A stretch of DNA of 55,432 bases, from assembly GCA_964434735.1 (NCBI GenBank), contig CAYSWK010000005.1, positions 1 through 55,432 on the forward strand, written 5' to 3'. The position numbers were made by a program, and so were the translations under genes. This DNA comes from Candidatus Micrarchaeota archaeon (lineage in GTDB: Archaea; Micrarchaeota; Micrarchaeia; Anstonellales; Bilamarchaeaceae). The notes beneath the pieces are model-generated. The model searched no databases. It was not told the origin of the DNA and was given only the letters and a program-made list of their open reading frames with translations. Shown piece by piece: positions 180-52,799 of this stretch. Each line of letters begins with the position of its first letter. Position 1 is the first letter of the stretch.

Positions 180-248
180 GTGTTTATATATGGTAGAAAA
201 GGTTTATAAAGAGTGGTATTAAGTGTTATTTAAAGAAATAATAAAAAA

Positions 249-1244
249 TTAATCCCATTCCAAGGATCCTGCCTTTTTGTACTCAGTAACGCGTGTCTCA
301 AAGAAGTTCTTTTCCTTTGGAAGGTCAACTGATTGCGACATCCAGGGGAAGGGGTTTTCGGTTCCAAACATTTTAGGTAAATCGATGCGTTCCAATCGCC
401 TGTCTGCAATGTATTCGACATATGCCGCAAACTGGTCTGCGTTGATTCCTAAAAGTCCTTTAGGACATGCGTCATAGGCGTATTTTTTCTCAAGCTCAAC
501 TGCTTTTCGAATGAGTCCTACAATCTCATCTTGGAATTCCTTAGTCCATATGGAAGGATTTTCCGTTTTGATCGTATTAATTAGGTCGCAACCAAATGCA
601 AGATGAATCGATTCGTCACGCATGATATATTCAAACTGTTCTCCGATTCCAACCATTTTATTCTGGCGTTTCATGGCAAGCATCATGGCAAATCCTGCGT
701 AGAAAAATATTCCTTCCATGATGACGTAAAATCCTATGAGGTCGCGTACGAACATGCGGATGTTATCATCTCCTTTTGTGTTGAAATTAGGGTTGAATAT
801 CGATTTGGTGAGCTCAACGACAAAATCGTCTTTTTCCTTGATTGAAGGGATGGTGAGATACATTTTGTATATCTCTTCAGGATCAAGGCCAAGCGTATCG
901 CAGCAATAGATGAACGTGTCAGTATGTATTGCCTCCTCAAACGCTTGCCTGAGCAGATATTGCCTGCTTTCGGGGTTTGAAACGTGGTTGTACACGGCCA
1001 AAACGATGTTGTTTGCAGTGAGCGATTCGGCAGTTGAGAAAAACCCAAGGTTCCATAATATGAGCCTTCGTTCTTCCGCATTGAGTGCATGGGGATTTTT
1101 CCATTGTTCAACATCGTTTTGCATTGAAATTTCTTCAGGAGTCCAATTGTTGTTTGTTCCTGTCTTGTAGTATTCTCGTGCCCATAAGTAGGTCATGGGC
1201 AGGATTTTGTTCGGGTCTGTTTTTGAGTTGTTGATTATTCCCAT
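249..1244 (-). CDS. nrdB: Ribonucleotide reductase class I beta subunit, class Ic (Mn/Fe)-type signature
   Basis: GFFSTAESL, EEAIHTDTF, MEGIFFYAGF, RDESIH, NFFETRVTEY motifs. Confidence 0.97.
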   Translation of the reverse strand: MGIINNSKTDPNKILPMTYLWAREYYKTGTNNNWTPEEISMQNDVEQWKNPHALNAEERRLILWNLGFFSTAESLTANNIVLAVYNHVSNPESRQYLLRQAFEEAIHTDTFIYCCDTLGLDPEEIYKMYLTIPSIKEKDDFVVELTKSIFNPNFNTKGDDNIRMFVRDLIGFYVIMEGIFFYAGFAMMLAMKRQNKMVGIGEQFEYIMRDESIHLAFGCDLINTIKTENPSIWTKEFQDEIVGLIRKAVELEKKYAYDACPKGLLGINADQFAAYVEYIADRRLERIDLPKMFGTENPFPWMSQSVDLPKEKNFFETRVTEYKKAGSLEWD

Positions 1245-29443: not shown

Positions 29444-31189
29444 ATGGCTAGTACCCGTATTGCAGTTATTGACCGCGAGCTTTGCATAAAGGAAAAATGC
29501 GGCTATGCGTGCGAGCATGTTTGCCCTCCCAACCGAATGGGTGAAGAGTGTATTACCATTGAAAAGGCAACAGATTTTCCAGTCATTTCAGAAGAATTAT
29601 GCATTGGCTGCGGCCTTTGCGTTAAAAAATGCCCTATGGATTGCATTACGATTATTAACATGACTCATGAATTGACCGATCCCGTTTACCAGTATGGCAT
29701 CAACGCGTTTCGGCTTTATGGTCTTCCCTTGCCCGCTAGTGGCTGTGTTTCATTGGTTGGTAAGAACGGTATTGGGAAAACAAGCGCATTGAAGCTGCTT
29801 TCCCGTTCGATGAATCCCAATTTTGCACAGTTCGATCGTGCATTGAGCGAGAAGGAGATTCTTGAGAAATTGCCCATTGAAACCCGAAGGTATTTCCAGG
29901 AGCTTGGTGAATCGGTTCGCATGGTAAGCATGAAACCTCAGTATGTTGATCGTATCAGGGATGCGTTCAAAGGCACCGTACGTCAGCTGCTTGAGACTGT
30001 TGCGGGAAAGGATGCTGCGGCACGGGGAGTTGAATTGTTTGACCTCTCTAAATTTCTTGACCGAACGCTTTCACAGCTTTCCGGCGGCGAGCTTCAAAAA
30101 ACTGCAATTGCGGTTTGCTATCTGAAGCAGGCAGACCTGTATTATTTTGATGAGTTCACCAATTATCTTGATATCGAAGAACGGCTTAAGGGCGCACTTA
30201 TTTTGAAGGATCTTTCATCACAAAAGCAAGTGATGCTCGCTGAGCACGATCTTACCATTCTTGATTACGTAAGCGATTACGTATATCTCTTTTACGGTGA
30301 GGAAAACACGTATGGCATCGTTTCACATATTCGCGCAGTTCGGGCGGGGATAAATGAGTATATTGACGGTTTCCTTGGAGATGAAAACGTCCGTTTTAGG
30401 GAGTACTCGCTTGCCTTTTCCTCATACTCAGAAACGGAAGTCAAGACAAAACCGAAAATTACGTATCCTTCGCTTTCAAAATCATTCAATTCATTTTCAT
30501 TTACTTCAGAAGGCGGAACTATCCGTGAAGGGGAAATCATCGGCCTGGTTGGCAAGAACGCACTGGGAAAATCAGTGTTCATGAAGATGCTTGCAGGAGT
30601 TGAGAAATCAGATGCAAAGCTTCCTGAGCTGAAGATTTCTTATAAACCGCAGTATATTCAACCCGAAGATTGTACGGCACTTGAACTGTTCATGCGCCAC
30701 TCGCTTAACAATGAAGTGCTTGAAGACTGCAAGCGACGATTAAATTTGCATACGTTGCTTGAGAAAAAGCTTACTGAACTATCCGGTGGTGAGTTGCAAC
30801 GGATTGCATTAACATTAGCGCTTTCGCAACCTGCTGATTTGTACCTCTTTGATGAGCCAACGGCATTTTTAGATATTGAGCAGCGTTTTGAATTTGCCTA
30901 CCTTTTACGAAAAGTAATCGGTGAAAGCACCCGTGCGGCATTTGTCATAGACCACGATGTGGTGTTTATGGATACGGTGGCAAGCAGGCTTATGGTGTTT
31001 GAAGGCGAGTCAAGCGTTATTGGAAAAACGTGCGCACCTTTGGCAAAACGGGAAGGGATGAACAAGTTCCTTAAAATTGTCGGCGTTACGATGCGCCGGG
31101 ACAAGGACTCAAAGCGTCCGCGAATCAACAAGCCGCTAAGTGCACTTGATACCGAGCAGAAAAAGAAGGGAGAATATTATTACGTTTAG
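29444..31189 (+). CDS. rli1: Ribosome recycling ATPase ABCE1/Rli1
   Basis: Two FeS motifs (CIKEKCGYACEHVCP, CIGCGLCVKKCP), two ABC domains with LSGGELQ, terminal YYY. Confidence 0.97.
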   Translation: MASTRIAVIDRELCIKEKCGYACEHVCPPNRMGEECITIEKATDFPVISEELCIGCGLCVKKCPMDCITIINMTHELTDPVYQYGINAFRLYGLPLPASGCVSLVGKNGIGKTSALKLLSRSMNPNFAQFDRALSEKEILEKLPIETRRYFQELGESVRMVSMKPQYVDRIRDAFKGTVRQLLETVAGKDAAARGVELFDLSKFLDRTLSQLSGGELQKTAIAVCYLKQADLYYFDEFTNYLDIEERLKGALILKDLSSQKQVMLAEHDLTILDYVSDYVYLFYGEENTYGIVSHIRAVRAGINEYIDGFLGDENVRFREYSLAFSSYSETEVKTKPKITYPSLSKSFNSFSFTSEGGTIREGEIIGLVGKNALGKSVFMKMLAGVEKSDAKLPELKISYKPQYIQPEDCTALELFMRHSLNNEVLEDCKRRLNLHTLLEKKLTELSGGELQRIALTLALSQPADLYLFDEPTAFLDIEQRFEFAYLLRKVIGESTRAAFVIDHDVVFMDTVASRLMVFEGESSVIGKTCAPLAKREGMNKFLKIVGVTMRRDKDSKRPRINKPLSALDTEQKKKGEYYYV

Positions 31190-31737
31190 CTGTCAGAAAG
31201 GGCTGCCTTAATATCTACGTATTCTACTTCTTCATTTTGTTTTCTTCCTTCAACCTGGGTAGGAGGCCCCGTAGTTATCTCGGGAGGTTCGTCCGTTGTT
31301 ATTCCAAGGAAAAACCTGCGTTTTGTTTTTGAATCAATTTCGTGTGTTTTCATATTGGCTGTCGCCACAATCATTTGTGCAGCATGAGTAGTGAGCCATT
31401 TAAGCTCATCAGAGTCATCGACTGGCAGTAATATGATCGGTTTTGACGGATCATTTTCATTAGTTCTTTTCCAGGGAATCATTCGACCGTGTTTATGAGC
31501 CAGTCTGTCTAATCGTGTGCATTGTTGTGCCGTGAGGATTTGAATATGTACTTCAGCATAAAATTTAACTTCAAGCTCCTTTTCCAATTCGAGAATCCGT
31601 AGGATAAAGCGTATAAACCCCCAGTCTCCTTTTAATGAGTCAAGCAAAAGTATTCTTCGATTTCCATTGACGTTTTCAGTATACTCCGTAGTAGTTACTT
31701 GCGTTGGAAGAAATTCGCGTAGAAGTTCCAATTGCAA
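31186..31737 (-). CDS. Hypothetical protein, possibly frameshifted from an ATG at 31853
   Basis: 183-aa ORF from TTG; frame open 18 more codons upstream without a start. Confidence 0.55.
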   Translation of the reverse strand: MQLELLREFLPTQVTTTEYTENVNGNRRILLLDSLKGDWGFIRFILRILELEKELEVKFYAEVHIQILTAQQCTRLDRLAHKHGRMIPWKRTNENDPSKPIILLPVDDSDELKWLTTHAAQMIVATANMKTHEIDSKTKRRFFLGITTDEPPEITTGPPTQVEGRKQNEEVEYVDIKAALSDS

Positions 31738-31905
31738 TGACTGCGGTATTTCGGTAACTGGGTCAGGCTCTATTTTCTTAATCGGATTATCCTTTCAAAT
31801 CGGCTGTCGTGTCTTGAAATAACTTCGCGGCTTGTCACTCCGAGTGTTGACATGCATTCAATATTCGTTCGTACTTTATATAAACGTTGCCTTCATAGTA
31901 TTTTT

Positions 31906-32454
31906 ATGGACCCAATTACCCGTTATTTCTTTGAATCAGGCGAACTCAAGCGCACTCAACGTTCAGGCTGGTGGACTGCACATGTGAAAGATCCTGAATC
32001 AGTTGCAGAACATTCATTTCGAACTGCAGTTATTGCATTTTTCCTCGCTGAATTGGAAGGAGAAGATCCTCATAAAGTTGCATCTGCAGCACTGTTCCAT
32101 GACGTGCACGAAGCACGCATTATGGATATCCATAAAATTGCAAACCGATACGTAAAAGTTGACCATAAGGAAGTTGAAAAGGAGCAAATTGCCGATTTGC
32201 CTTTAGAAATTCGTGAATCGCTTCATTATTTGCTTTTCAACCTTTCAGACAAGGAAAAAACCATACTTAAGGATGCGGATTTGCTTGAAATGGCCTTGCA
32301 GGCAAAGGAATACCAGGAGATTGGTTATCCAACTCAGAGTTGGATTGACGTCGTAAAAGAAAAATTAGTGACAAAAAGCGCAAAGAAAATCCTTGGTGAT
32401 GCCTTGAAATACAAAAGCACCGACTGGTGGAAGGACCTCAAAAGAATTGATTAG
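31906..32454 (+). CDS. HD-domain 5'-deoxynucleotidase, YfbR/HDDC2 family
   Basis: RSGW, ESVAEHSF, ALFHD, LKDADLLE; TTTATATAAA about 25 nt upstream. Confidence 0.9.
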   Translation: MDPITRYFFESGELKRTQRSGWWTAHVKDPESVAEHSFRTAVIAFFLAELEGEDPHKVASAALFHDVHEARIMDIHKIANRYVKVDHKEVEKEQIADLPLEIRESLHYLLFNLSDKEKTILKDADLLEMALQAKEYQEIGYPTQSWIDVVKEKLVTKSAKKILGDALKYKSTDWWKDLKRID

Positions 32455-32564
32455 ACGATTTTGAGAGATGATGGTGTAGTCCATCGGATCTTAAAAAGAT
32501 TGATTAGATGTTTTTGAGAGATGATGGGGCGTAAATACCATCTGATTTAAAGAAGATTGACTAG
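32434..32564 (+). repeat. Three recoded copies of the HD gene 3' end (DLK[R/K]ID-stop) separated by two related hairpin spacers
   Basis: Copies at 32434-32454, 32487-32507, 32544-32564; spacers share TTTTGAGAGATGATGG...CCATC. Confidence 0.85.
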
Positions 32565-32584
32565 GAATTATACTTGGTAGTATT

Positions 32585-33700
32585 ATGGACCTAGAGCGAA
32601 AAATAGATTTGGTAAAACGGCCTCCCACCGAGGAACTTGTCACTGAACAAGATTTACGTGAAATTTTCCAAACATACGCTCATCCACGTCATTATATCGG
32701 TTTTGAGATTTCAGGAATGGTTCATATCGGTTCTGGTCTTTGCACAACTCTTAAAATTCGTGATTTATTAGAAGCGGGCTGTAAACCAACTATTTTCCTT
32801 GCAGACTACCATGCGTGGATTAACGGCAAATTAGGCGGAGATCTTGCAATGATCAAAAAGGTCGGAGTTGGTTATTTCAAACATGCATTTATTTCATTGG
32901 GTTTGGATCCTTCGAAAGTCGATTATATTTTGGCAAGTGAATTATACCAAAAGCGCCCCGATTTTTGGGCAGACGTACTTCGAATTACTAAAGATACAAC
33001 CATGAAGAGGATGATGCGTTGCGTCACTATTATGGGAAGATCGGAAAGCGAAACGCTTTCTTCCGCAAGCATGGTGTACCCCGCCATGCAGGCAGCAGAC
33101 ATTTTCCATTTAGATGCACAGATTGCCCATGCAGGGATGGATCAGAGAAAAGTCCATATGCTTGCACGTGAATTGGCACCAAGTTTCAAGCACAAGTTTG
33201 TTGCGATGCATTCGCACTTGCTTCCTGGGTTGCAAGGCCCAGGTAGAATGAATGCGCCAAGTACGCAATCAACATCGAGCACTCGGCATTCTGACGTTGA
33301 CTCAAAAGTTGAAGCAGAAATGGATGTGAAAATGAGCAAGTCAAAACCTGACTCCGCAATATTTATTCATGATTCAGTTGAGGATATTCAAAGAAAAATA
33401 AAGAAAGCACATTGCCCTGAAAAAGTAGTTGAAGGAAACCCGATGATCGAATATGCTCAGTACCTTGTGCTTCGGGAAAAATCATTGAAAGTTGAACGGC
33501 CTGCTAAATTTGGCGGAGATGTTGAGTTTGCAACTCCAGAAGAGCTCAAAAGCACGTTCACTGAAGGAAAACTTCATCCAATGGACTTGAAAAATGCAGT
33601 TGCAAGGGAGTTAATTGAACTTCTGAAGCCAAGCCGTGAGTACTTTGACAAGCACAAGGAATACTTAGAGCAGATCAAGGGCGCAAGCATTACGCGTTGA
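32585..33700 (+). CDS. tyrS: Tyrosyl-tRNA synthetase, archaeal type
   Basis: YIGFEISGMVHIG, ADYHAWIN, YPAMQAAD, GMDQRK, KMSKS. Confidence 0.97.
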   Translation: MDLERKIDLVKRPPTEELVTEQDLREIFQTYAHPRHYIGFEISGMVHIGSGLCTTLKIRDLLEAGCKPTIFLADYHAWINGKLGGDLAMIKKVGVGYFKHAFISLGLDPSKVDYILASELYQKRPDFWADVLRITKDTTMKRMMRCVTIMGRSESETLSSASMVYPAMQAADIFHLDAQIAHAGMDQRKVHMLARELAPSFKHKFVAMHSHLLPGLQGPGRMNAPSTQSTSSTRHSDVDSKVEAEMDVKMSKSKPDSAIFIHDSVEDIQRKIKKAHCPEKVVEGNPMIEYAQYLVLREKSLKVERPAKFGGDVEFATPEELKSTFTEGKLHPMDLKNAVARELIELLKPSREYFDKHKEYLEQIKGASITR

Positions 33701-37293: not shown

Positions 37294-40200
37294 ATGAGAG
37301 GGAACTTATTCGTAACGACAGTATTATTATTGCTTCTTTTGTCAGGCATTTCATTTGCCCGTCCGTTTCCTATTGTAACAAACGATACTGTCGCACCTTT
37401 TGCCGACCAACCGGAGTTTTCAAGCATGAGCGATGCACAAATTCAGTTTTTTGCACAAAATTTTTATGGTACACAAAAATTATACGCAAACCAGATTTCC
37501 CAGCTTCGTGCGTATAATCCGAATTTTCTTATGCTTCATTATCGTTTGGGCCAGTCTGCAGGTTCTGCACCAGGCATTGCGCATGATGCGGATTCCGACG
37601 GTTCAGTAAACGGCAACGTATATTCTAGTGAAGAATGGACAAGCTATACACAAAACCAAGACTGGTACATTCTTGGCAGTGACGGACAACGACTTTACCA
37701 AACTCAATGGAATTGGTATCCGTTTGATCTTGGAAGAAGTCAAGTCGTTCGAAACCAGGTTGCTGATTACTGGGTAAGGCGTGCAACTGAAGAAGCGCGC
37801 GCAACAGGCAGTGACGGTATTTTTGCAGATTCTTCAGGCCAATTGTTTGGCCCGTGGCAGAATACAAACGCGCTTCCAAATTACGTTCCGGGTTCTCCAA
37901 CATTTACGGTTGCAAACGGCCAGAATTGGCTTTCAAATGCGTATGTTCCTTATTCTCTTCGCGTGTGGCAGGGCATGCAGGCACAAAATCTTTCCTATCT
38001 TCCAAACGTAGGCCAATTAATTACTAGTTGGGATTCGATTAACAATTATCTTAATTCTGACGGTGCGATGGTTGAAGGTTTTGCAGGATTTGGTTCAAGC
38101 ATTGCCGACGTAAACGATTGGCGCCTTGAAATGAATAATGTACTTACGTTGTCCCGGAACAACAAAATCGTAATCGCACAGACGTCTCTTGATGCTCAAA
38201 ATGACCTTACTCGAAGAAGTTTTATTGCAGGGAGTTATCTTCTTTCAAAAGGCCCAAAGAGCTACCTTTTCATGTATTCGGGCTCAACATTGGAGTGGTA
38301 TCCTGAATATGACCTTGATTTGGGCGCATATGTAGATATGCCTGCAAACGTAGATTCATTAGTATGGAACGGAGTTTATCGAAGAAATTTTGAAAAAGGA
38401 ATGGTGCTTGTTAATCCAAGCGGTTCAAATATGGTCGTAAATTTAGGTACCACCTATAATCTTGCCCAATTTCAAGGCGGAGGAGCCATTCCCGTAGACG
38501 GTTCACGTGCAGGTTCGATTACCTATCAATCGGTAAATCAAGTAACTATTCCTGCTCAAGGCGCAGTGTTTCTTTTGAATATTCAAGGTGCACCAATTGA
38601 CGCGGACCAGGACGGTTATACTTTTGCAGTTGATTGTAATGATAATAATGCACAAGTAAATCCGGGTCGAAACGAGGTTCCAGGGAATGGGGTTGACGAT
38701 GATTGCAACGTAAACACTCCCGATTCAATCCTTTCTCCTACAAACCAGACCGGCTTAATTGCAACAATTGGTTCGGATTCATCCATATATTATAATGAAC
38801 GTGATGCCGCAGTTACAGGTGCAACCCATTTCATCATTAATCCTGTTGTCGGGAATGGCTTGGGAACCCAACTTGCTGACAACCAAGGATTGTACATATA
38901 CACTCCTCGCGTAATGGGTCGTTTTTATTATCGTGTTGTCGCATCAAATGGGCAGGCAGTTGCAAATGTTGCAGCGTTCCATCGGTCAGGACAAACGTTC
39001 CTTACCTGGACGGAAAATGGCGCAGCATCATATGCTATTTATCGTGAATCTAATCAGCAGGCAGGAAGTGTCGCAGTTGATGAAACAAATGATCCAATAC
39101 AGCCTGTTCTTGTTTGGCAAGACAATGGTGCGCGAGTTTATACTCTTTTCTTACCTCAGGACTCTTGGAACCGTGAACTTTTCCGAGGCCAAGGGCTTAA
39201 TTTCTTCGTTGGCGTTCCTCAAGGGTATAATTATGCTTCCCCTTCAAGACTTCCAGTTGTAATTCACCAGGAAGGTCGCAGTTCACGATATACGAACAAC
39301 AATGCGCGTGTTGGAACAGGTGGCAGTCCTTATGATATTACTGCAGTGTATGTGCGTCTTGATGATCCTGACCTTCCAACCTATTCGCAAGGATGGTATT
39401 TTGGGCATTATTGCAATCCTCAAAATCCTCAAGAAGGCGTTTGCAATTATTTAGAAAATGCGTACATTGAATTTATTCTTGCATTGCAACGAAATGCCCA
39501 GTATAACATCGACCAGGATCGTATCTATGACTATGGTCACTCAATGGGTGGAACGGCAGCACTTCGATTTGGTATGCGTTACCCGGATATTTTTGCAGGA
39601 ATTTATGCCTCTGAACCTGTAACAAACTTTGATACGGTCGCAGATCTTGGCGGTACAAACTGGGAAGCAGATGTTGCAGATTCAAGAGGAACTTCTGCAC
39701 AAAACCTTCCGTTTCATCCGGTAGGCGTTTCAAGAAATTACTTGTTGAATTTAGACGGTCAAGGCGTTTGGACTGTTGAAAACATGATCGATTCTGTTTG
39801 CCGTAATCAAGGAAAAAATACAGCACTTATCACTCTTGCCCATGGAACTGCAGATGACAGTGTTGATACCGATACGCAAGGGTATTCCTTTTATCAAGCA
39901 GCTAATCGTTGTCATTTAGGTTTTCAGGCCCAAATTACAAGTGGAGGTCATAGTTGGCAAGGCTTTGCCGGCATGGGCCAGATGCTTGACATTTTTGGGA
40001 ATCATCAATTCAGAAAAGCAAGTTTCCCTGCATTTTCAAATGCTCAAAATTCGAAAGATCCTTCAACAACCGGAACAGGCTCATTTAACCAAGACCTTGT
40101 TTGGGCTTTACGACAAGACACTGCGACCGTGTGGGAATCGGAAATTCGTTCAACTACTACGGATCAGCAGGTAGACGTTACTCCAAGAAGATCACGCCTT

Positions 40201-42984
40201 GTGGTTTTACCCAATCAACAATTTTTCTGGGAACGAAGGAATACTCAAGGCACCGTACTTGCATCCGGTTCAGTGCAGGCAGACCCCTATGGAGTAGTTA
40301 CTGTCCCCCGATTCCTTGCAACTACCTCAGGGAGTGTTCTTGTGCTTACTGCTGGCCAGGTGGCGCCAGATATAACTCCGCCTGTCATTTCAGTTCCAAC
40401 GACGACTCCAGGAACAACAACTGCGCAAGTAGTATTCACTACTAATGAACTTTCAACGGTGCGTTTGGACTATGGGACCACACGTTCCTATGGACAGGTT
40501 ATGAATCTTCCTTCAAATACGCAGTTTAGTGTTAATCTTGTTTCACTTGCCCCTTCAACAACCTATTATTATCAGGTTACGGCAACGGATTCTGCAGGTA
40601 ATTCGCAAACGTTGAATGGCCAATTTACTACGTCTGCATTAGTTGTTGATGCGGATGGGGATGGATATAACTCAAATGCGGATTGCAACGATGCAAACGC
40701 GCAGGTAAATCCGGGCCATGCTGAAGTTCTTGGAAATGGCATTGATGATGATTGTAACTCAAGCACTCCTGATCAAGTTGTAAACGGATCTTTGCAAACC
40801 GTAACACTCGTATCTAGTGCAGATTCATACCTGTATCCATCATATTCAAATACGGGCAGACAAACAAACCTTAAGATGTATCAGGAAGGAAACACAGCAA
40901 GCCAAACACGCCTTCTTGTACGATTTAATATTTCCTTGATTCCAGCAGATGCAGTTATTACCAACGCGCAACTTAAATTGTATCATGTGGGGTCTTCCTT
41001 TGACACGGCAGCAAGAAACGTTGCCGTTTGTGCACTTTCCCAAAATTGGGTTGAAGGAACGGGTACGCATGAATTTGACGCAGGAGCAACGGGCGTTACG
41101 TGGACCTCAACGGGAACGGGTGTAAACTGGAATATAGCAGGCGGATCTTGCGGTGCAGATTTTGCAAGCGCCCCCGTACCTTACCGGGCAACGAGCATCT
41201 ACGATCCAGTACGCTTTGTCGTATTTGATGTGACCTCACAGGCGCGTAGTTCAAACGGATACCTGGTTCATTCAATAAGCGGCAACTGGAGGCAGGATGA
41301 TTTTGCTCCTCGTGAAGCTGCGGATCCAAATGTTCGACCTCAATTAGTTGTTACTTACTCCCTCCCCGTTCTTGACGTAGACGGGGATGGTTATGATGCG
41401 AACACAGATTGTAATGACCATAATACCCAAATCAACCCCAGCATGGCAGAAGTTTTGTACGACGGCATTGACAACGACTGTAACCCCAATACCTTGGATT
41501 ACGTAGACGTTGACCAAGACAGCTTTCGTTCCAATGTTGATTGTGACGACACTAATCCTCGCGTTAATCCTGGGGCTTTGGAAATTCTTTATGATCAAAT
41601 AGATAATGATTGCAATGTAAACACGCCAGACACCGTTGATGCGGATCAAGACACTTTCAACAGCAATGTTGACTGCAATGATACTAATACCCAAATCAAC
41701 CCCGGCATGGCAGAAGTTTTGTATGATGGAGTTGACAACGATTGCAATGTGCAGACTTTGGATTTCCAAGGATACTCTCATTTCTTCACAATTGAGGAAA
41801 TTCAAAATTATACATCTACAAATCTTGGGGATTCCCATATGTTTGACGTTAAAAATGAGTTTTCCTATTTTTCATTCCTCCCTCCCCAGGAAGGAGACTA
41901 TGAGTTTATTGTAACTCTTAAGAAAGAAGGAAATCCCTATTGGTTCCAGGTGAATGTTCGAAATGTGCTTGAGGGTCGCGTCACACACGATTTGGGAAAC
42001 ATATCTGATAATTCCTATTTCCAATACTCTACGCAGTTTCATATCCATCCCGTTTTGACGCAGGTTCGTTTGTATGGGGGAGCACGGGGAGGCTCAAAGC
42101 AGTATCTTCAATCTGTTGAGATTAGGCAAATCCCCCCTCGCATTGACGTAGATCAGGACGGATTTGTACGTGCTGTTGATTGTGATGATACTAATGCCCA
42201 AATCAACCCCGGCATGGCAGAAGTTTTGTACGATGGTGTTGATAACGATTGTAATGCCAACACCCCAGATATGGTTGATGCCGATGCAGATGGGTTTAAT
42301 TCAAACGTTGATTGTAATGATGCTGACGCACGCGTCAATCCGGGAGCCCAGGAAGTTCTTGGAAACGGAATTGATGATGATTGTACGTCTTTGACACCCG
42401 ATGTTTTGCAGACCTATAATCTGACACTGTATGCTGTTGAGGACGCATACGTATTCCCTTCGTACGGTAATACGGGAAAACAGGATATTCTCAAGATGTA
42501 TCGCGAGGCCGATGTAGCATCCTCAACTCATCTTATTGTCAAGTTTGATACGTCAAGTATCCCACAAGGTGCACGTGTTGTACGTGCGCGTCTTGAATTG
42601 TATCCTCTTGTTTCTCAATTTGATTCTGCCGTACGGGAGGCAAGTGTTTGTGCACTTTCCCAAAATTGGGTTGAAGGAACGGGTACGCATGAATTTGACG
42701 CAGGAGCAACGGGCGTTACGTGGACCTCAACGGGAACGGGTACAAATTGGAATACAGCAGGTGGATCTTGCGGACCGGTTATTTCGAGTGCTTTGGTTTC
42801 GTATGTTGCACAAGCCTCTTTTGACGAATCACGGTTTGTCGGTTTTGATGTTACGTCTCAGGCACGTTCATCCTATGGATTTATGATTTTACCCACAAGT
42901 GGCAATTGGAGACAGGATAATTTTGCCCCGCGGGAAACGCCGGATGCGCGTATGAGACCAAGACTCATTATCGAATACCAATAA
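37294..42984 (+). CDS. Giant secreted multidomain protein: putative glycoside hydrolase, alpha/beta hydrolase, FN3-like domain, 7 MopE-type metal-binding repeats and 2 DNRLRE-like domains
   Basis: Signal peptide; GIFADS and AMVEGF in a TIM-barrel-like region; GHSMGG, GTADDS, GGHSW; DxDxDG..DCND..NPG..E..DDDCN repeated 7 times; two domains ending RPQLVV and RPRLII. Confidence 0.85.
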   Translation: MRGNLFVTTVLLLLLLSGISFARPFPIVTNDTVAPFADQPEFSSMSDAQIQFFAQNFYGTQKLYANQISQLRAYNPNFLMLHYRLGQSAGSAPGIAHDADSDGSVNGNVYSSEEWTSYTQNQDWYILGSDGQRLYQTQWNWYPFDLGRSQVVRNQVADYWVRRATEEARATGSDGIFADSSGQLFGPWQNTNALPNYVPGSPTFTVANGQNWLSNAYVPYSLRVWQGMQAQNLSYLPNVGQLITSWDSINNYLNSDGAMVEGFAGFGSSIADVNDWRLEMNNVLTLSRNNKIVIAQTSLDAQNDLTRRSFIAGSYLLSKGPKSYLFMYSGSTLEWYPEYDLDLGAYVDMPANVDSLVWNGVYRRNFEKGMVLVNPSGSNMVVNLGTTYNLAQFQGGGAIPVDGSRAGSITYQSVNQVTIPAQGAVFLLNIQGAPIDADQDGYTFAVDCNDNNAQVNPGRNEVPGNGVDDDCNVNTPDSILSPTNQTGLIATIGSDSSIYYNERDAAVTGATHFIINPVVGNGLGTQLADNQGLYIYTPRVMGRFYYRVVASNGQAVANVAAFHRSGQTFLTWTENGAASYAIYRESNQQAGSVAVDETNDPIQPVLVWQDNGARVYTLFLPQDSWNRELFRGQGLNFFVGVPQGYNYASPSRLPVVIHQEGRSSRYTNNNARVGTGGSPYDITAVYVRLDDPDLPTYSQGWYFGHYCNPQNPQEGVCNYLENAYIEFILALQRNAQYNIDQDRIYDYGHSMGGTAALRFGMRYPDIFAGIYASEPVTNFDTVADLGGTNWEADVADSRGTSAQNLPFHPVGVSRNYLLNLDGQGVWTVENMIDSVCRNQGKNTALITLAHGTADDSVDTDTQGYSFYQAANRCHLGFQAQITSGGHSWQGFAGMGQMLDIFGNHQFRKASFPAFSNAQNSKDPSTTGTGSFNQDLVWALRQDTATVWESEIRSTTTDQQVDVTPRRSRLVVLPNQQFFWERRNTQGTVLASGSVQADPYGVVTVPRFLATTSGSVLVLTAGQVAPDITPPVISVPTTTPGTTTAQVVFTTNELSTVRLDYGTTRSYGQVMNLPSNTQFSVNLVSLAPSTTYYYQVTATDSAGNSQTLNGQFTTSALVVDADGDGYNSNADCNDANAQVNPGHAEVLGNGIDDDCNSSTPDQVVNGSLQTVTLVSSADSYLYPSYSNTGRQTNLKMYQEGNTASQTRLLVRFNISLIPADAVITNAQLKLYHVGSSFDTAARNVAVCALSQNWVEGTGTHEFDAGATGVTWTSTGTGVNWNIAGGSCGADFASAPVPYRATSIYDPVRFVVFDVTSQARSSNGYLVHSISGNWRQDDFAPREAADPNVRPQLVVTYSLPVLDVDGDGYDANTDCNDHNTQINPSMAEVLYDGIDNDCNPNTLDYVDVDQDSFRSNVDCDDTNPRVNPGALEILYDQIDNDCNVNTPDTVDADQDTFNSNVDCNDTNTQINPGMAEVLYDGVDNDCNVQTLDFQGYSHFFTIEEIQNYTSTNLGDSHMFDVKNEFSYFSFLPPQEGDYEFIVTLKKEGNPYWFQVNVRNVLEGRVTHDLGNISDNSYFQYSTQFHIHPVLTQVRLYGGARGGSKQYLQSVEIRQIPPRIDVDQDGFVRAVDCDDTNAQINPGMAEVLYDGVDNDCNANTPDMVDADADGFNSNVDCNDADARVNPGAQEVLGNGIDDDCTSLTPDVLQTYNLTLYAVEDAYVFPSYGNTGKQDILKMYREADVASSTHLIVKFDTSSIPQGARVVRARLELYPLVSQFDSAVREASVCALSQNWVEGTGTHEFDAGATGVTWTSTGTGTNWNTAGGSCGPVISSALVSYVAQASFDESRFVGFDVTSQARSSYGFMILPTSGNWRQDNFAPRETPDARMRPRLIIEYQ
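41026..41121 (+). repeat. 96-bp exact direct repeat, copy 1 (copy 2 at 42646-42741)
   Basis: Identical nucleotide run 1620 bp apart inside the two DNRLRE-like domains. Confidence 0.95.
42646..42741 (+). repeat. 96-bp exact direct repeat, copy 2
   Basis: Identical to 41026-41121. Confidence 0.95.
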
Positions 42985-51804: not shown

Positions 51805-51888
51805 ATGAGAATACTTTTGCAGTTCCCCGATCTGCTTGAAACAAGTTTCAAGTTTCCAGAAATTGGATTACAAAAAGGTGAGATCTAA
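51805..51888 (+). other. 27-aa upstream ORF echoing the Dph2 N-terminus with recoded codons
   Basis: MRILLQFPDLLETSFKFPEIGLQKGEI-stop; TAATG overlap with dph2; internal inverted repeat at 51835-51852. Confidence 0.75.
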
Positions 51889-52799
51889 TGCGTATTTTAC
51901 TCCAATTTCCGGAAGGGCTCAAAAAAGAGGCTCTTAAATACCAGGAAAAATACGAAAAGGAAGGCCACGAGGTGTTCGTGGCGTGCGCCCCTTGCTATGG
52001 CGGATGCGATCTTCCAATTGATGAAGCGCGTTGGATCAAGGCAGATAAAATCGTTCATTTTGGCCATGAAAAGTTTGTGAAAAAAGATTTGGATGTTGAA
52101 ATTGAATATATCCCCTATTATCTTGACGTCAATCTTGATTCGGTTATGAAAACGTTTGAGCAATTGAAGCAATACAAAACCATTGCGCTTGGAACGACTA
52201 TCCAACACATTCACCAATACGAAAAAATGTGTGAACTTCTAAAGAGCAAGGGCCATGAAGTTGTTGCAGACAAGGGATACTGGGCAATCAAAACCGGACA
52301 AATTCTTGGCTGTGATTCCCTTTCATTGAAGCGCGTTGCATTCAAGGCCGATGCATGCGTTATTGTTGCAGATGGGATGTTCCATCCTTTGGCAATAGAT
52401 ATCGAAGATAAGCCCGTATTTGTTATTCATCCGCAAACGGGTGCAATGAACCAGATCAATGATGAAATTATTCGCTTACGAAAAAAGAGGCGTGCAAATA
52501 TCATTGCTGCAGTTGATGCAAAGACCTTTGGAATTCTTGTTTCAACAAAAGTTGGGCAGTTTTTGCTTGGACCTGCCGACCGCATCAAGAAGGAGCTTGA
52601 GGCAAGAGGCAGGAAAGCAATTATTTTAGTTGCAAACGAGCTTGAGCCGTTGCCTTTGCAGAACTTTATGTTGTTTGACTGCTATGTAAACACGGCCTGC
52701 CCAAGACTCGCAGACGATACTGATGAATTAGGCAAACCGTGTCTTAATTATGATCAGCTGAAGGAAGCATTCAAGATAATGGATGAGTTGAAAAAATAA
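51888..52799 (+). CDS. dph2: Diphthamide biosynthesis enzyme Dph2
   Basis: LLQFPEGL, CYGGCD, HFGH, QILGC, NTACPR. Confidence 0.96.
   Translation: MRILLQFPEGLKKEALKYQEKYEKEGHEVFVACAPCYGGCDLPIDEARWIKADKIVHFGHEKFVKKDLDVEIEYIPYYLDVNLDSVMKTFEQLKQYKTIALGTTIQHIHQYEKMCELLKSKGHEVVADKGYWAIKTGQILGCDSLSLKRVAFKADACVIVADGMFHPLAIDIEDKPVFVIHPQTGAMNQINDEIIRLRKKRRANIIAAVDAKTFGILVSTKVGQFLLGPADRIKKELEARGRKAIILVANELEPLPLQNFMLFDCYVNTACPRLADDTDELGKPCLNYDQLKEAFKIMDELKK

Follow-up and report, generated by a model that had tools for sequence, protein, structure and literature searches.

Recoded copies of a gene 3′ end, separated by hairpin spacers, ahead of tyrS in a Micrarchaeota archaeon

Architecture of the HD-tyrS junction

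In a 55,432-nt stretch of DNA from Candidatus Micrarchaeota archaeon (DPANN; GenBank assembly GCA_964434735.1, contig CAYSWK010000005.1, positions 1 to 55,432; hereafter the window), an HD-domain gene of the YfbR-like 5′-deoxynucleotidase family (the HD gene) is followed on the same strand by tyrS, which encodes an archaeal-type tyrosyl-tRNA synthetase (TyrRS). The gap between the two genes totals 130 bp and holds two further copies of the last six codons and stop of the HD gene, each spelt differently. The layout is A1-B1-A2-B2-A3, in which the A segments are gene ends, the B segments are spacers that can fold into hairpins, and A1 completes the HD open reading frame (ORF). The HD gene matches the Pfam families HD_3 (4.5e-22) and YfbR-like (7.8e-14), and its C-terminus, ...WWKDLKRID*, fits the family consensus WWKGLK(K/R)(L/I)(D/E)* obtained from 120 homologues. 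The features of the junction are as follows.

31906-32454, forward strand: HD gene (YfbR-like 5′-deoxynucleotidase family); a longer ORF runs from 31852.
32434-32454, forward strand: copy 1 (A1), GACCTCAAAAGAATTGATTAG, the current HD coding end, GAC CTC AAA AGA ATT GAT TAG = DLKRID*.
32455-32486, forward strand: spacer B1, 32 nt, ACGA + TTTTGAGAGATGATGG + loop TGTAGT + CCATC + G.
32466-32491, forward strand: hairpin 1, AGATGATGG paired with CCATC-GG-ATCT across a 6-nt loop, its 3′ foot within copy 2.
32487-32507, forward strand: copy 2 (A2), GATCTTAAAAAGATTGATTAG, non-coding, GAT CTT AAA AAG ATT GAT TAG = DLKKID*.
32508-32543, forward strand: spacer B2, 36 nt, ATGT + TTTTGAGAGATGATGG + loop GGCGTAAATA + CCATC + T.
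32519-32548, forward strand: hairpin 2, AGATGATGG paired with CCATC-TG-ATTT (one G-U pair) across a 10-nt loop, its 3′ foot within copy 3.
32544-32564, forward strand: copy 3 (A3), GATTTAAAGAAGATTGACTAG, now non-coding and the putative ancestral HD end, GAT TTA AAG AAG ATT GAC TAG = DLKKID*.
32565-32584, forward strand: 20-nt spacer between copy 3 and tyrS, GAATTATACTTGGTAGTATT, with a weak Shine-Dalgarno-like GGTAG.
32585-33700, forward strand: tyrS, archaeal-type TyrRS of 371 aa (Pfam tRNA-synt_1b, 6.6e-42).

This anatomy, with three recoded HD ends and spacers of 32 and 36 nt, had been proposed from the letters of the DNA in the original prediction, and we recover it in full; both hairpins also fold as drawn there, with energies of −10.8 kcal/mol for hairpin 1 (32463-32492) and −6.3 kcal/mol for hairpin 2 (32516-32549). 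Only copy 1 is translated. Copy 2 lies in a frame other than that of the HD gene, has no in-frame start and is closed off by a TGA five codons upstream, while copy 3 is closed off by a TAA three codons upstream; translation, read-through, frameshifting or bypass into either copy can thus be dismissed. Copy 3 contains a TATA-like TTTAAAG, 33-39 nt 5′ of the tyrS ATG. Two other coding explanations of the spacers were also discarded. Read on after the stop they give (T/M)(I/F)LRDDG(V/A), which could be the start of a donor's downstream gene, but no such N-terminus occurs in any locus; on the minus strand, the difference in loop length shifts the frame, and no ORF is conserved across them.

A repeat search of the window returned this family of three, spaced 53 and 57 nt apart, along with a 42-nt pair of 86% identity. 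The family is the sole intergenic local direct repeat of its kind in the window, one other family lying inside a large ORF. Two exact copies of the 16-mer TTTTGAGAGATGATGG exist in the window, at 32459 and 32512, and allowing up to three mismatches adds none. A degenerate 21-mer search pattern matches copies 2 and 3 only, where 0.05 matches are expected in the window. The same sequence is present in independent assemblies from at least three samples, dated 2019 and 2025, including a 151-nt unitig that covers 32473-32623, and it is therefore not an assembly artefact.

The copies differ in the manner of coding sequences

Copies 2 and 3 differ at four positions (C>T, T>A, A>G and T>C), and direct reading of the codons upholds the earlier claim that all four changes are synonymous and that the stop is kept. 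Copies 1 and 2 are separated by two synonymous changes and by AGA/AAG, an exchange of arginine and lysine. Only in the HD frame do the copies differ by 0-1 amino acids; the other five frames give 1-5 differences. In simulations, four random substitutions in a 21-mer were all synonymous and kept the stop with P = 4e-4 to 1e-3, the case of copies 2 and 3, and four substitutions were all conservative, the case of copies 1 and 2, with P ~0.01. We also considered a null model of duplication and drift in which the coding copy takes synonymous changes only, the other copy drifts freely and both mutate at an equal rate; where the two had come to differ at four sites, the non-coding one retained DLKKID* in 0.1-0.2% of simulated cases. 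The constraint reaches beyond the 21-mers, as the CCATC(G/T) that directly precedes the second and third copies would encode Pro-Ser in their frame, and its single difference is likewise synonymous. Furthermore, all three copies have D at position −6 and I at position −2, both of which are rare among the 120 HD homologues. Since this rare pair is shared within an otherwise conserved family ending, the copies derive from closely related HD genes.

At the level of sequence, these patterns establish the copies as homologous gene ends that diverged under coding constraint. As the differences are only synonymous or conservative, each copy must have served as a working gene end while it evolved, in a separate related lineage or DNA molecule, and the three must have been joined recently. 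The nucleotide identity that remains is slight: the only stretch invariant in all three copies is ATTGA (5 nt), and the longest pairwise identical runs are 8 nt (A2/A3) and 10 nt (A1/A2).

The spacers diverge in a different way. B1 and B2 are identical at 21 positions (the 16-mer and CCATC), differ at three of the five other aligned positions, and have unrelated loops of unequal length. Judged from this alignment, such uneven divergence is typical of related functional sequences and not of drifted duplicates. Local alignments of the spacers to either flank, the HD upstream region or the 5′ region of tyrS, are no better than those of shuffled sequences (p>0.9), and we therefore reject the idea that the spacers are diverged junction copies left by duplication of the whole junction. 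With spacers foreign to both flanks, the A-B-A-B-A order did not arise by duplicating the original junction.

These results bear on the plainest alternative, an in-situ tandem duplication of a ~55-bp unit by slippage or unequal crossing-over followed by neutral drift, with the synonymous pattern a coincidence. The head-to-tail order and the similar periods of the repeats are indeed what slippage would leave behind, but the simulated probabilities, the uneven divergence with all 21 stem and 5′ positions identical between unrelated loops, the absence of any source for the spacers in the flanks, and the recurrence of the same synonymous bias in six further repeat pairs at other loci (see below) make this account very improbable. 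The codon-pattern check that had been suggested with the original prediction thus came out in its favour: a simple 55-bp tandem duplication does not yield the synonymous pattern observed.

The ancestral junction

The closest relatives, all Micrarchaeota, share 74% identity in TyrRS and 57% in the HD protein, and the protein collections hold nothing nearer for either. The HD gene is not near tyrS in most of 80 reference genomes. In the nearer lineages it lies directly 5′ of tyrS, with stop, 20 nt and ATG in one locus (L085) and stop, 5 nt and ATG in six others (L086-L091); in further lineages, unrelated genes stand between the two, without a repeat of the HD end. The seven direct junctions each have a single HD end and so represent the empty site, in genomes with 52-56% HD identity to the window. 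As the stop of copy 3 lies exactly 20 nt 5′ of the tyrS ATG, the spacing found in L085, copy 3 is most simply taken as the ancestral end, with 110 nt added ahead of it. That the last copy is the original had been suggested before, and the suggestion gains from this spacing as well as from two analogous loci with an empty-site relative, described below, in both of which the downstream copy is ancestral. No remnants of the HD gene, or of the genes inserted in relatives, were found near the locus.

Two features of the surroundings may be recorded here. At 31186-31905, where relatives carry a co-directional gene of ~182 aa 5′ of the HD gene, the window has an unrelated opposite-strand ORF of 183 aa and 168 nt of non-coding DNA, so that the left flank of the HD gene has been rearranged too. 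In many Micrarchaeota (L011, L014, L019-L021, L026, L030, L034, L040 and others) a divergent tRNA gene lies on the minus strand ~40-200 nt upstream of tyrS; where ARAGORN detects it, it is tRNA-Thr(TGT), and in many loci it has long intron-like insertions and is missed by ARAGORN.

Recoded gene ends at other Micrarchaeota genes

We scanned the window together with the fetched Micrarchaeota loci (759 kb, ~2000 ORFs of at least 100 aa) for genes whose last six residues and stop recur within 600 nt downstream, using scrambled tails as the control. The scan returned the HD locus, three further genuine cases, and artefacts at an N-gap and at a tandem array; the scrambled control returned none.

The first case is tyrS itself in Micrarchaeota LFW-35 (L069, 5024-5159), which ends FEKHKELLVQI* and is followed 64 nt on by FEKHKELLTQI*. 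The last 11 codons and stop are duplicated, with five differences that comprise three synonymous changes and the V/T replacement. A relative with 79.6% nucleotide identity in tyrS (L066) has a single end, giving an empty site at ~2560-2600, compared with which L069 has an extra 100 nt made up of a 36-nt recoded end and a 64-nt spacer with a GC hairpin and a T-run. The downstream copy of L069 is nearer to L066 (29/36 identical positions) than the upstream copy is (25/36), and is therefore the ancestral one. In the second case (L004, 8420-8613, minus strand), a gene for an Ogg-like DNA glycosylase ends WYMKTGKVLK* (TAA) and WYMKTGKILK* (TGA) lies 128 nt downstream. The eight differences are six synonymous changes, one V/I replacement, both variants of which occur among orthologues, and one stop-to-stop change from TAA to TGA. 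Here the downstream copy abuts the stop of a convergent gene, and the spacer has two perfect 7-bp hairpins.

The third case carries cargo. In L063 (3406-3963), the gene for a DUF2070 membrane protein immediately 5′ of tyrS has a 504-bp insert between 27-nt repeats; a ParE-like toxin is encoded there, with an antitoxin-like ORF of 59 aa as its partner. The repeats consist of GTTTTTTATATTGTT followed by TCAACATTATAA in the coding copy or by TCCACCCTCTAA in the downstream copy, and the empty site in L067 (3937-3963) equals the downstream copy. The ParE cassette is found at the DUF2070 gene end in L102-L105 as well, and another species (L098-L101, 2741-3297) has the same cassette in the same place, with a ParE of 85% identity and repeats that agree over 24 nt and are distinguished by CTA TGA versus TTA TAG. 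In L098-L101 a second cassette (MNT/HepT) stands between the downstream repeat and tyrS. No integrase accompanies the cassettes of L063 or L098-L101, and no recombinase accompanies any such locus. In both L063 and L098, the proximal 15-24 nt of the two repeats are identical and lineage-specific while the distal codons alone differ, which fits a crossover within a mimic of the gene end.

An analogous arrangement at a gene 5′ end occurs in the window itself. A diphthamide synthase gene (Pfam 9.6e-65) starts at 51888 with ATG CGT ATT TTA CTC CAA TTT CCG GAA, and 83 nt upstream, at 51805, stands ATG AGA ATA CTT TTG CAG TTC CCC GAT (region 51805-51914). The first eight residues, MRILLQFP, are the same with every degenerate codon respelt, and the ninth is D for E; 11 of the 27 nt differ, and no identical run exceeds 3 nt. 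The upstream copy opens an ORF of 27 codons that closes with a TAA overlapping the genuine ATG (TAATG). The genuine start is served by a Shine-Dalgarno sequence of its own, GGTGA, and a TATA-like ATATATAAAT precedes the upstream copy.

Across the seven repeat pairs, 34 of the 40 differing nucleotides are synonymous or stop-to-stop, and the other six make up four conservative replacements. Three of the four 3′ cases touch tyrS. Donor lineages for the inserts of L069, L004 and L063 were not found among the fetched loci. As read from these alignments, the added DNA begins with a replacement gene end and continues with a hairpin, and the additions, which extend from a hairpin alone up to a toxin-antitoxin pair, can accrete. 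Separately from these cases, L013 (~200-420, minus strand) has a perfect 68-nt tandem duplication with more copies of a ATTTGAAAACCC motif; it appeared in the scan as a false match and may be a repeat array.

The same loci raise the possibility that no mobile module was ever involved. DNA imported from a related species may have replaced the HD gene or its 3′ part, bringing a gene end together with its native 3′ flank (the hairpin), and may have been joined illegitimately upstream of the resident last codons, either twice or once with subsequent unequal crossing-over. Import of this kind would account for the involvement of both gene ends, and it suits the diphthamide synthase case, whose copy lies 83 nt upstream and shares no identical run above 3 nt with the real start, better than a module does. 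The spacers do resemble gene 3′ flanks, as in the hairpin and T-run of L069; a recombinase was found nowhere; and the gene upstream of the HD gene is also non-syntenic with relatives. However, in L063 and L098 the tip of the gene alone is foreign and not its body, the proximal part of the repeats being identical and lineage-specific; the left-over ends are always short (21-36 nt); and illegitimate joins would not be expected to place the junctions of both modules at identical positions. We consider allele import unlikely as the explanation of the HD-tyrS junction.

RNA structure of the spacer

A 176-nt region containing the junction folds with z = −3.8, and none of 200 shuffled sequences folds as well. 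Besides the two hairpins, there are alternative pairings that enclose a stop codon, namely CTCAAAA/TTTTGAG (32437-43 with 32459-65) and CUUAAAAA/UUUUUGAG (32490-97 with 32511-18), and the stretch 32456-32559 as a whole can fold back on itself around the copy 2 stop, as a single long and imperfect hairpin. Each unit can moreover be drawn, on reading alone, as a box C/D-like kink-turn (K-turn), with a stem I of UUUUGAGA/UCUUAAAA, a 3-nt bulge GAU and tandem G.A pairs. In unit 2 the sequence AUGAUGG is accompanied by a perfect CUGA, and both loops contain GUA, the tyrosine anticodon, a match noticed post hoc.

One might therefore ask whether the region is a selected structured RNA, either a leader or operator of tyrS or an element of the HD 3′ untranslated region, in which protein-bound stem-loops or alternative long-range pairings control the termination or translation of tyrS and the gene-end copies are kept as parts of stems. 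Candidate binders would be L7Ae, through the K-turn, or TyrRS, through the GUA loops. The strength of the fold agrees with this, as do stems that stay identical while loops vary, a C>T change that keeps its pairing as G-U, the K-turn drawings with AUGAUGG and the exact CUGA in unit 2, and the GUA in both loops. There is also precedent in archaea, both for mRNA regulation by L7Ae (PMC5539422) and for genes of C/D small RNAs (sRNAs) that overlap gene 3′ ends (PMC6009581). Yet a structured RNA leaves the three-base periodicity and the kept stop codons unexplained. The original prediction had offered a structured tyrS leader as its alternative, and this fared poorly: no structured leader was found in ~90 Micrarchaeota tyrS upstream regions, nor any such structure after the HD gene in relatives, and Rfam returned no match at the gathering threshold for the whole window and chance matches only at E up to 10, one of which, to a C/D snoRNA model from eukaryotes (E = 2.8), lies 5′ of both hairpins. 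The contigs from public RNA runs cover the tyrS body only. Selection for such an RNA is, in our judgement, improbable as the origin of the repeats. A tRNA-mimic or T-box-type leader of the kind found at aminoacyl-tRNA synthetase genes was rejected, being absent from the same ~90 regions and without an Rfam model, and no tRNA or tRNA fragment was found.

The idea that the intergenic region holds two small box C/D sRNA genes or half-mers fits still less well. Both units have AUGAUGG, which matches six of the seven positions of RUGAUGA, unit 2 has CUGA, and genes of this kind can be mobile and frequently adjoin or overlap the 3′ end of a gene (PMC6009581). Against this, there are no C′/D′ boxes, unit 1 has CGGA as its D box, the spacings available for guides (10 and 14 nt) depart from the usual ~12 nt, the hairpins have no C/D match in Rfam, and the plain Watson-Crick hairpin is the more stable fold, leaving this the most improbable of the accounts considered here. 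What the hairpins probably do is act as RNA stem-loops that end or stabilise a transcript in the HD-tyrS region.

Discussion

We favour, at a little beyond an even chance, the view that the HD-tyrS spacer is a stack of three alternative HD 3′ ends left by recombination. The ancestral state would have been a tight, operon-like junction of HD stop, ~20 nt and tyrS ATG, and two modules of 53 and 57 bp would have been inserted ahead of the ancestral last six codons, each consisting of six replacement codons and TAG followed by the conserved hairpin. Copy 3 would have been made non-coding first and copy 2 later. The likeliest route appears to be that a small module carrying a 20-30-nt gene-end mimic recombined there in the Campbell manner; this would duplicate the gene end around the insert and leave the gene intact, and there may have been two such events, or one event with unequal crossing-over with a diverged allele. 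As they now stand, the modules have no cargo beyond the hairpin. The changes upstream of ATTGA are synonymous although this part would never be translated under a fixed-site integrase, so the mimic probably goes back to real gene ends in earlier hosts and was passed on through homologous loop-out and loop-in. Both the recombination route and the source of the modules are inferred, and the agent may be homologous recombination rather than an integrase. Indeed, the synonymous changes upstream of the shared core, taken together with a 5′ analogue that has no identical core, are explained more readily by diverged alleles recombining through homology than by an integrase with a fixed site.

Several results weigh against a stack built by recombination. 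No integrase, transposase, Cas1 or other mobile-element gene was found in the 55-kb window (Pfam, most ORFs of at least 110 aa). No second copy of the unit was found in the window or in 100 related loci; IMG/VR gave 0 matches and the phage and plasmid collections nothing relevant, and the JGI metagenomes gave a single chance match within an ORF of 1087 aa. No strains with one or two copies were seen, the public runs offering low-coverage contigs only, which show no joints and no indels. Inserts of 32-36 nt can neither be autonomous nor circularise as duplex DNA. The junctions of both modules lie at the same nucleotide positions, which calls for either unequal crossing-over as a further step or an enzyme with site specificity. 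Finally, with the nearest relatives as distant as 57% (HD) and 74% (TyrRS), the inference of the empty site has to span a wide evolutionary gap.

The same searches dispose of a dispersed repeat or miniature inverted-repeat transposable element, of which a further copy would be expected in the window, the ~100 loci, IMG/VR, the JGI metagenomes, phages or plasmids, and they give no support to the proposal that the unit might be met beside a recombinase on viral, plasmid or metagenomic contigs. Nor was the HD 3′ end found on viral contigs as a phage attachment site (attP): a degenerate pattern coding for WWKGLKKLD* has 0 matches in IMG/VR. An integron attC site or cassette array (RYYYAAC ... GTTRRRY) was rejected because neither strand of 32455-32564 has AAC or GTT in the required places. 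Insertion of a casposon or insertion sequence with target-site duplication was set aside too, the repeats being 19% diverged in a codon-aware manner and no Cas1 or transposase being present. A clustered regularly interspaced short palindromic repeat (CRISPR) array would have the opposite pattern, as here the repeats differ while the spacers share 21 nt.

Of the proposal that the junction holds scars of repeated integration, then, a part stands: the divergence is of the coding type, the last copy is the original, and recoded-end insertions that accrete do occur in the phylum. What is missing from the 55-kb window is a recombinase or any recognisable integrative element, and spacers of 32-36 nt are far too small to be elements themselves. 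The gene-end repeats, the restored gene and the empty site are all in place, but there is no recombinase, no cargo and no second copy; the junction therefore looks like the footprint of gene-3′-end integrative elements and is not a demonstrated member of that family.

Two side observations belong to these searches. In runs X2 and X10, a low-depth contig matches tyrS on both sides of 33128-33348 with 171 nt replaced by 120 other letters; it probably comes from a co-occurring diverged strain or species and is not a variant of the locus. At 41581-41750, inside an ORF of 1896 aa (37294-42984), there is a 38-nt direct repeat spaced 132 nt with 76% identity, probably an internal protein repeat. The other large ORFs of the window are nearly all housekeeping genes as far as Pfam recognises them, among them ribonucleotide reductase, the 2-oxoacid dehydrogenase complex, enolase, L10e, L15e, ABCE1, SepF, ScpA, PEP synthase, Dph2 and PurC.

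A more speculative extension, which we regard as doubtful, is that DPANN archaea harbour integrase-less mini-cassettes, from a ~35-nt hairpin up to toxin-antitoxin pairs, that carry a 20-35-nt mimic of a host gene terminus. Such cassettes would move between related genomes by loop-out and loop-in at the mimic, through homologous recombination or a recombinase acting in trans; the displaced codons would always be replaced by a recoded copy so that the target gene survives; the tyrS region would be preferred; and the window would hold two cargo-less members in tandem.

Integrative elements classically leave duplicated, recoded gene ends as their footprint, and here that footprint appears without an element or recombinase and with inserts down to the size of a hairpin. 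It recurs at both gene ends in several Micrarchaeota, once with toxin-antitoxin cargo and accretion of a second cassette. One such locus would be no more than a curiosity; because the pattern comes back at either end of genes, and near tyrS with a toxin cassette and accretion, it offers a tractable lead. If the modules are mobile, they offer a route by which toxin-antitoxin pairs could spread in streamlined DPANN genomes without an integrase of their own, and codon-aware terminal repeats would be a simple sequence signature for finding them. If allele replacement left the repeats instead, they are a record of diverged lineages recombining often, in organisms not yet open to genetic study. Either way, hairpins now separate two genes of a former operon and may have altered the expression of an essential synthetase gene.

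Comparison with known systems

The integrated mobile genetic elements (iMGEs) of Thaumarchaeota integrate in the 3′-distal part of archaeal protein genes, with a stop codon supplied by the element and tandem re-use of the site, and the window resembles them in having direct gene-end repeats that flank the insert, a replacement end and stop, and short attachment-site (att) repeats (PMC6563490). Unlike these elements, which span kilobases and carry integrases or Cas1, the inserts in the window are hairpins of 32-36 nt, with no recombinase in 55 kb and no free or second copy found.

At the 3′ end of icd in Escherichia coli, the prophages e14 and phage 21 bring an alternative, mostly synonymous gene end with the integrated DNA, so that icd stays intact and the original end is left downstream as a non-coding copy. 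What integrates there is a large prophage equipped with an integrase, and the duplication is a single one of ~165 bp, unlike the stacked, cargo-less modules of the window. The cis-mobilizable elements (CIMEs) found beside integrative and conjugative elements (ICEs) at the 3′ end of fda in Streptococcus thermophilus have no recombination genes, are bounded by gene-end att repeats and form arrays by re-use of the site. They differ from the window in being kilobase-sized deletion derivatives with a known cognate ICE integrase.

The concept of in-situ gene displacement by a xenologous or orthologous copy reportedly goes back to Omelchenko et al. in 2003. Displacement of this kind explains synonymously diverged terminal fragments beside an intact gene and fits the 5′ case at diphthamide synthase, but it predicts neither the conserved junction positions nor the related hairpin spacers, both of which are present in the window.

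The Micrarchaeota toxin-antitoxin cassettes of L063, L102-L105 and L098-L101 differ from the window in their cargo (ParE with the antitoxin-like ORF; MNT/HepT) and in their repeats, which have an identical core of 15-24 nt and distal differences only, whereas in the window the differences are spread along the repeat and the insert is a hairpin only. With the window they share the phylum, the hotspot upstream of tyrS, and the order of a coding recoded end, an insert and the original end.

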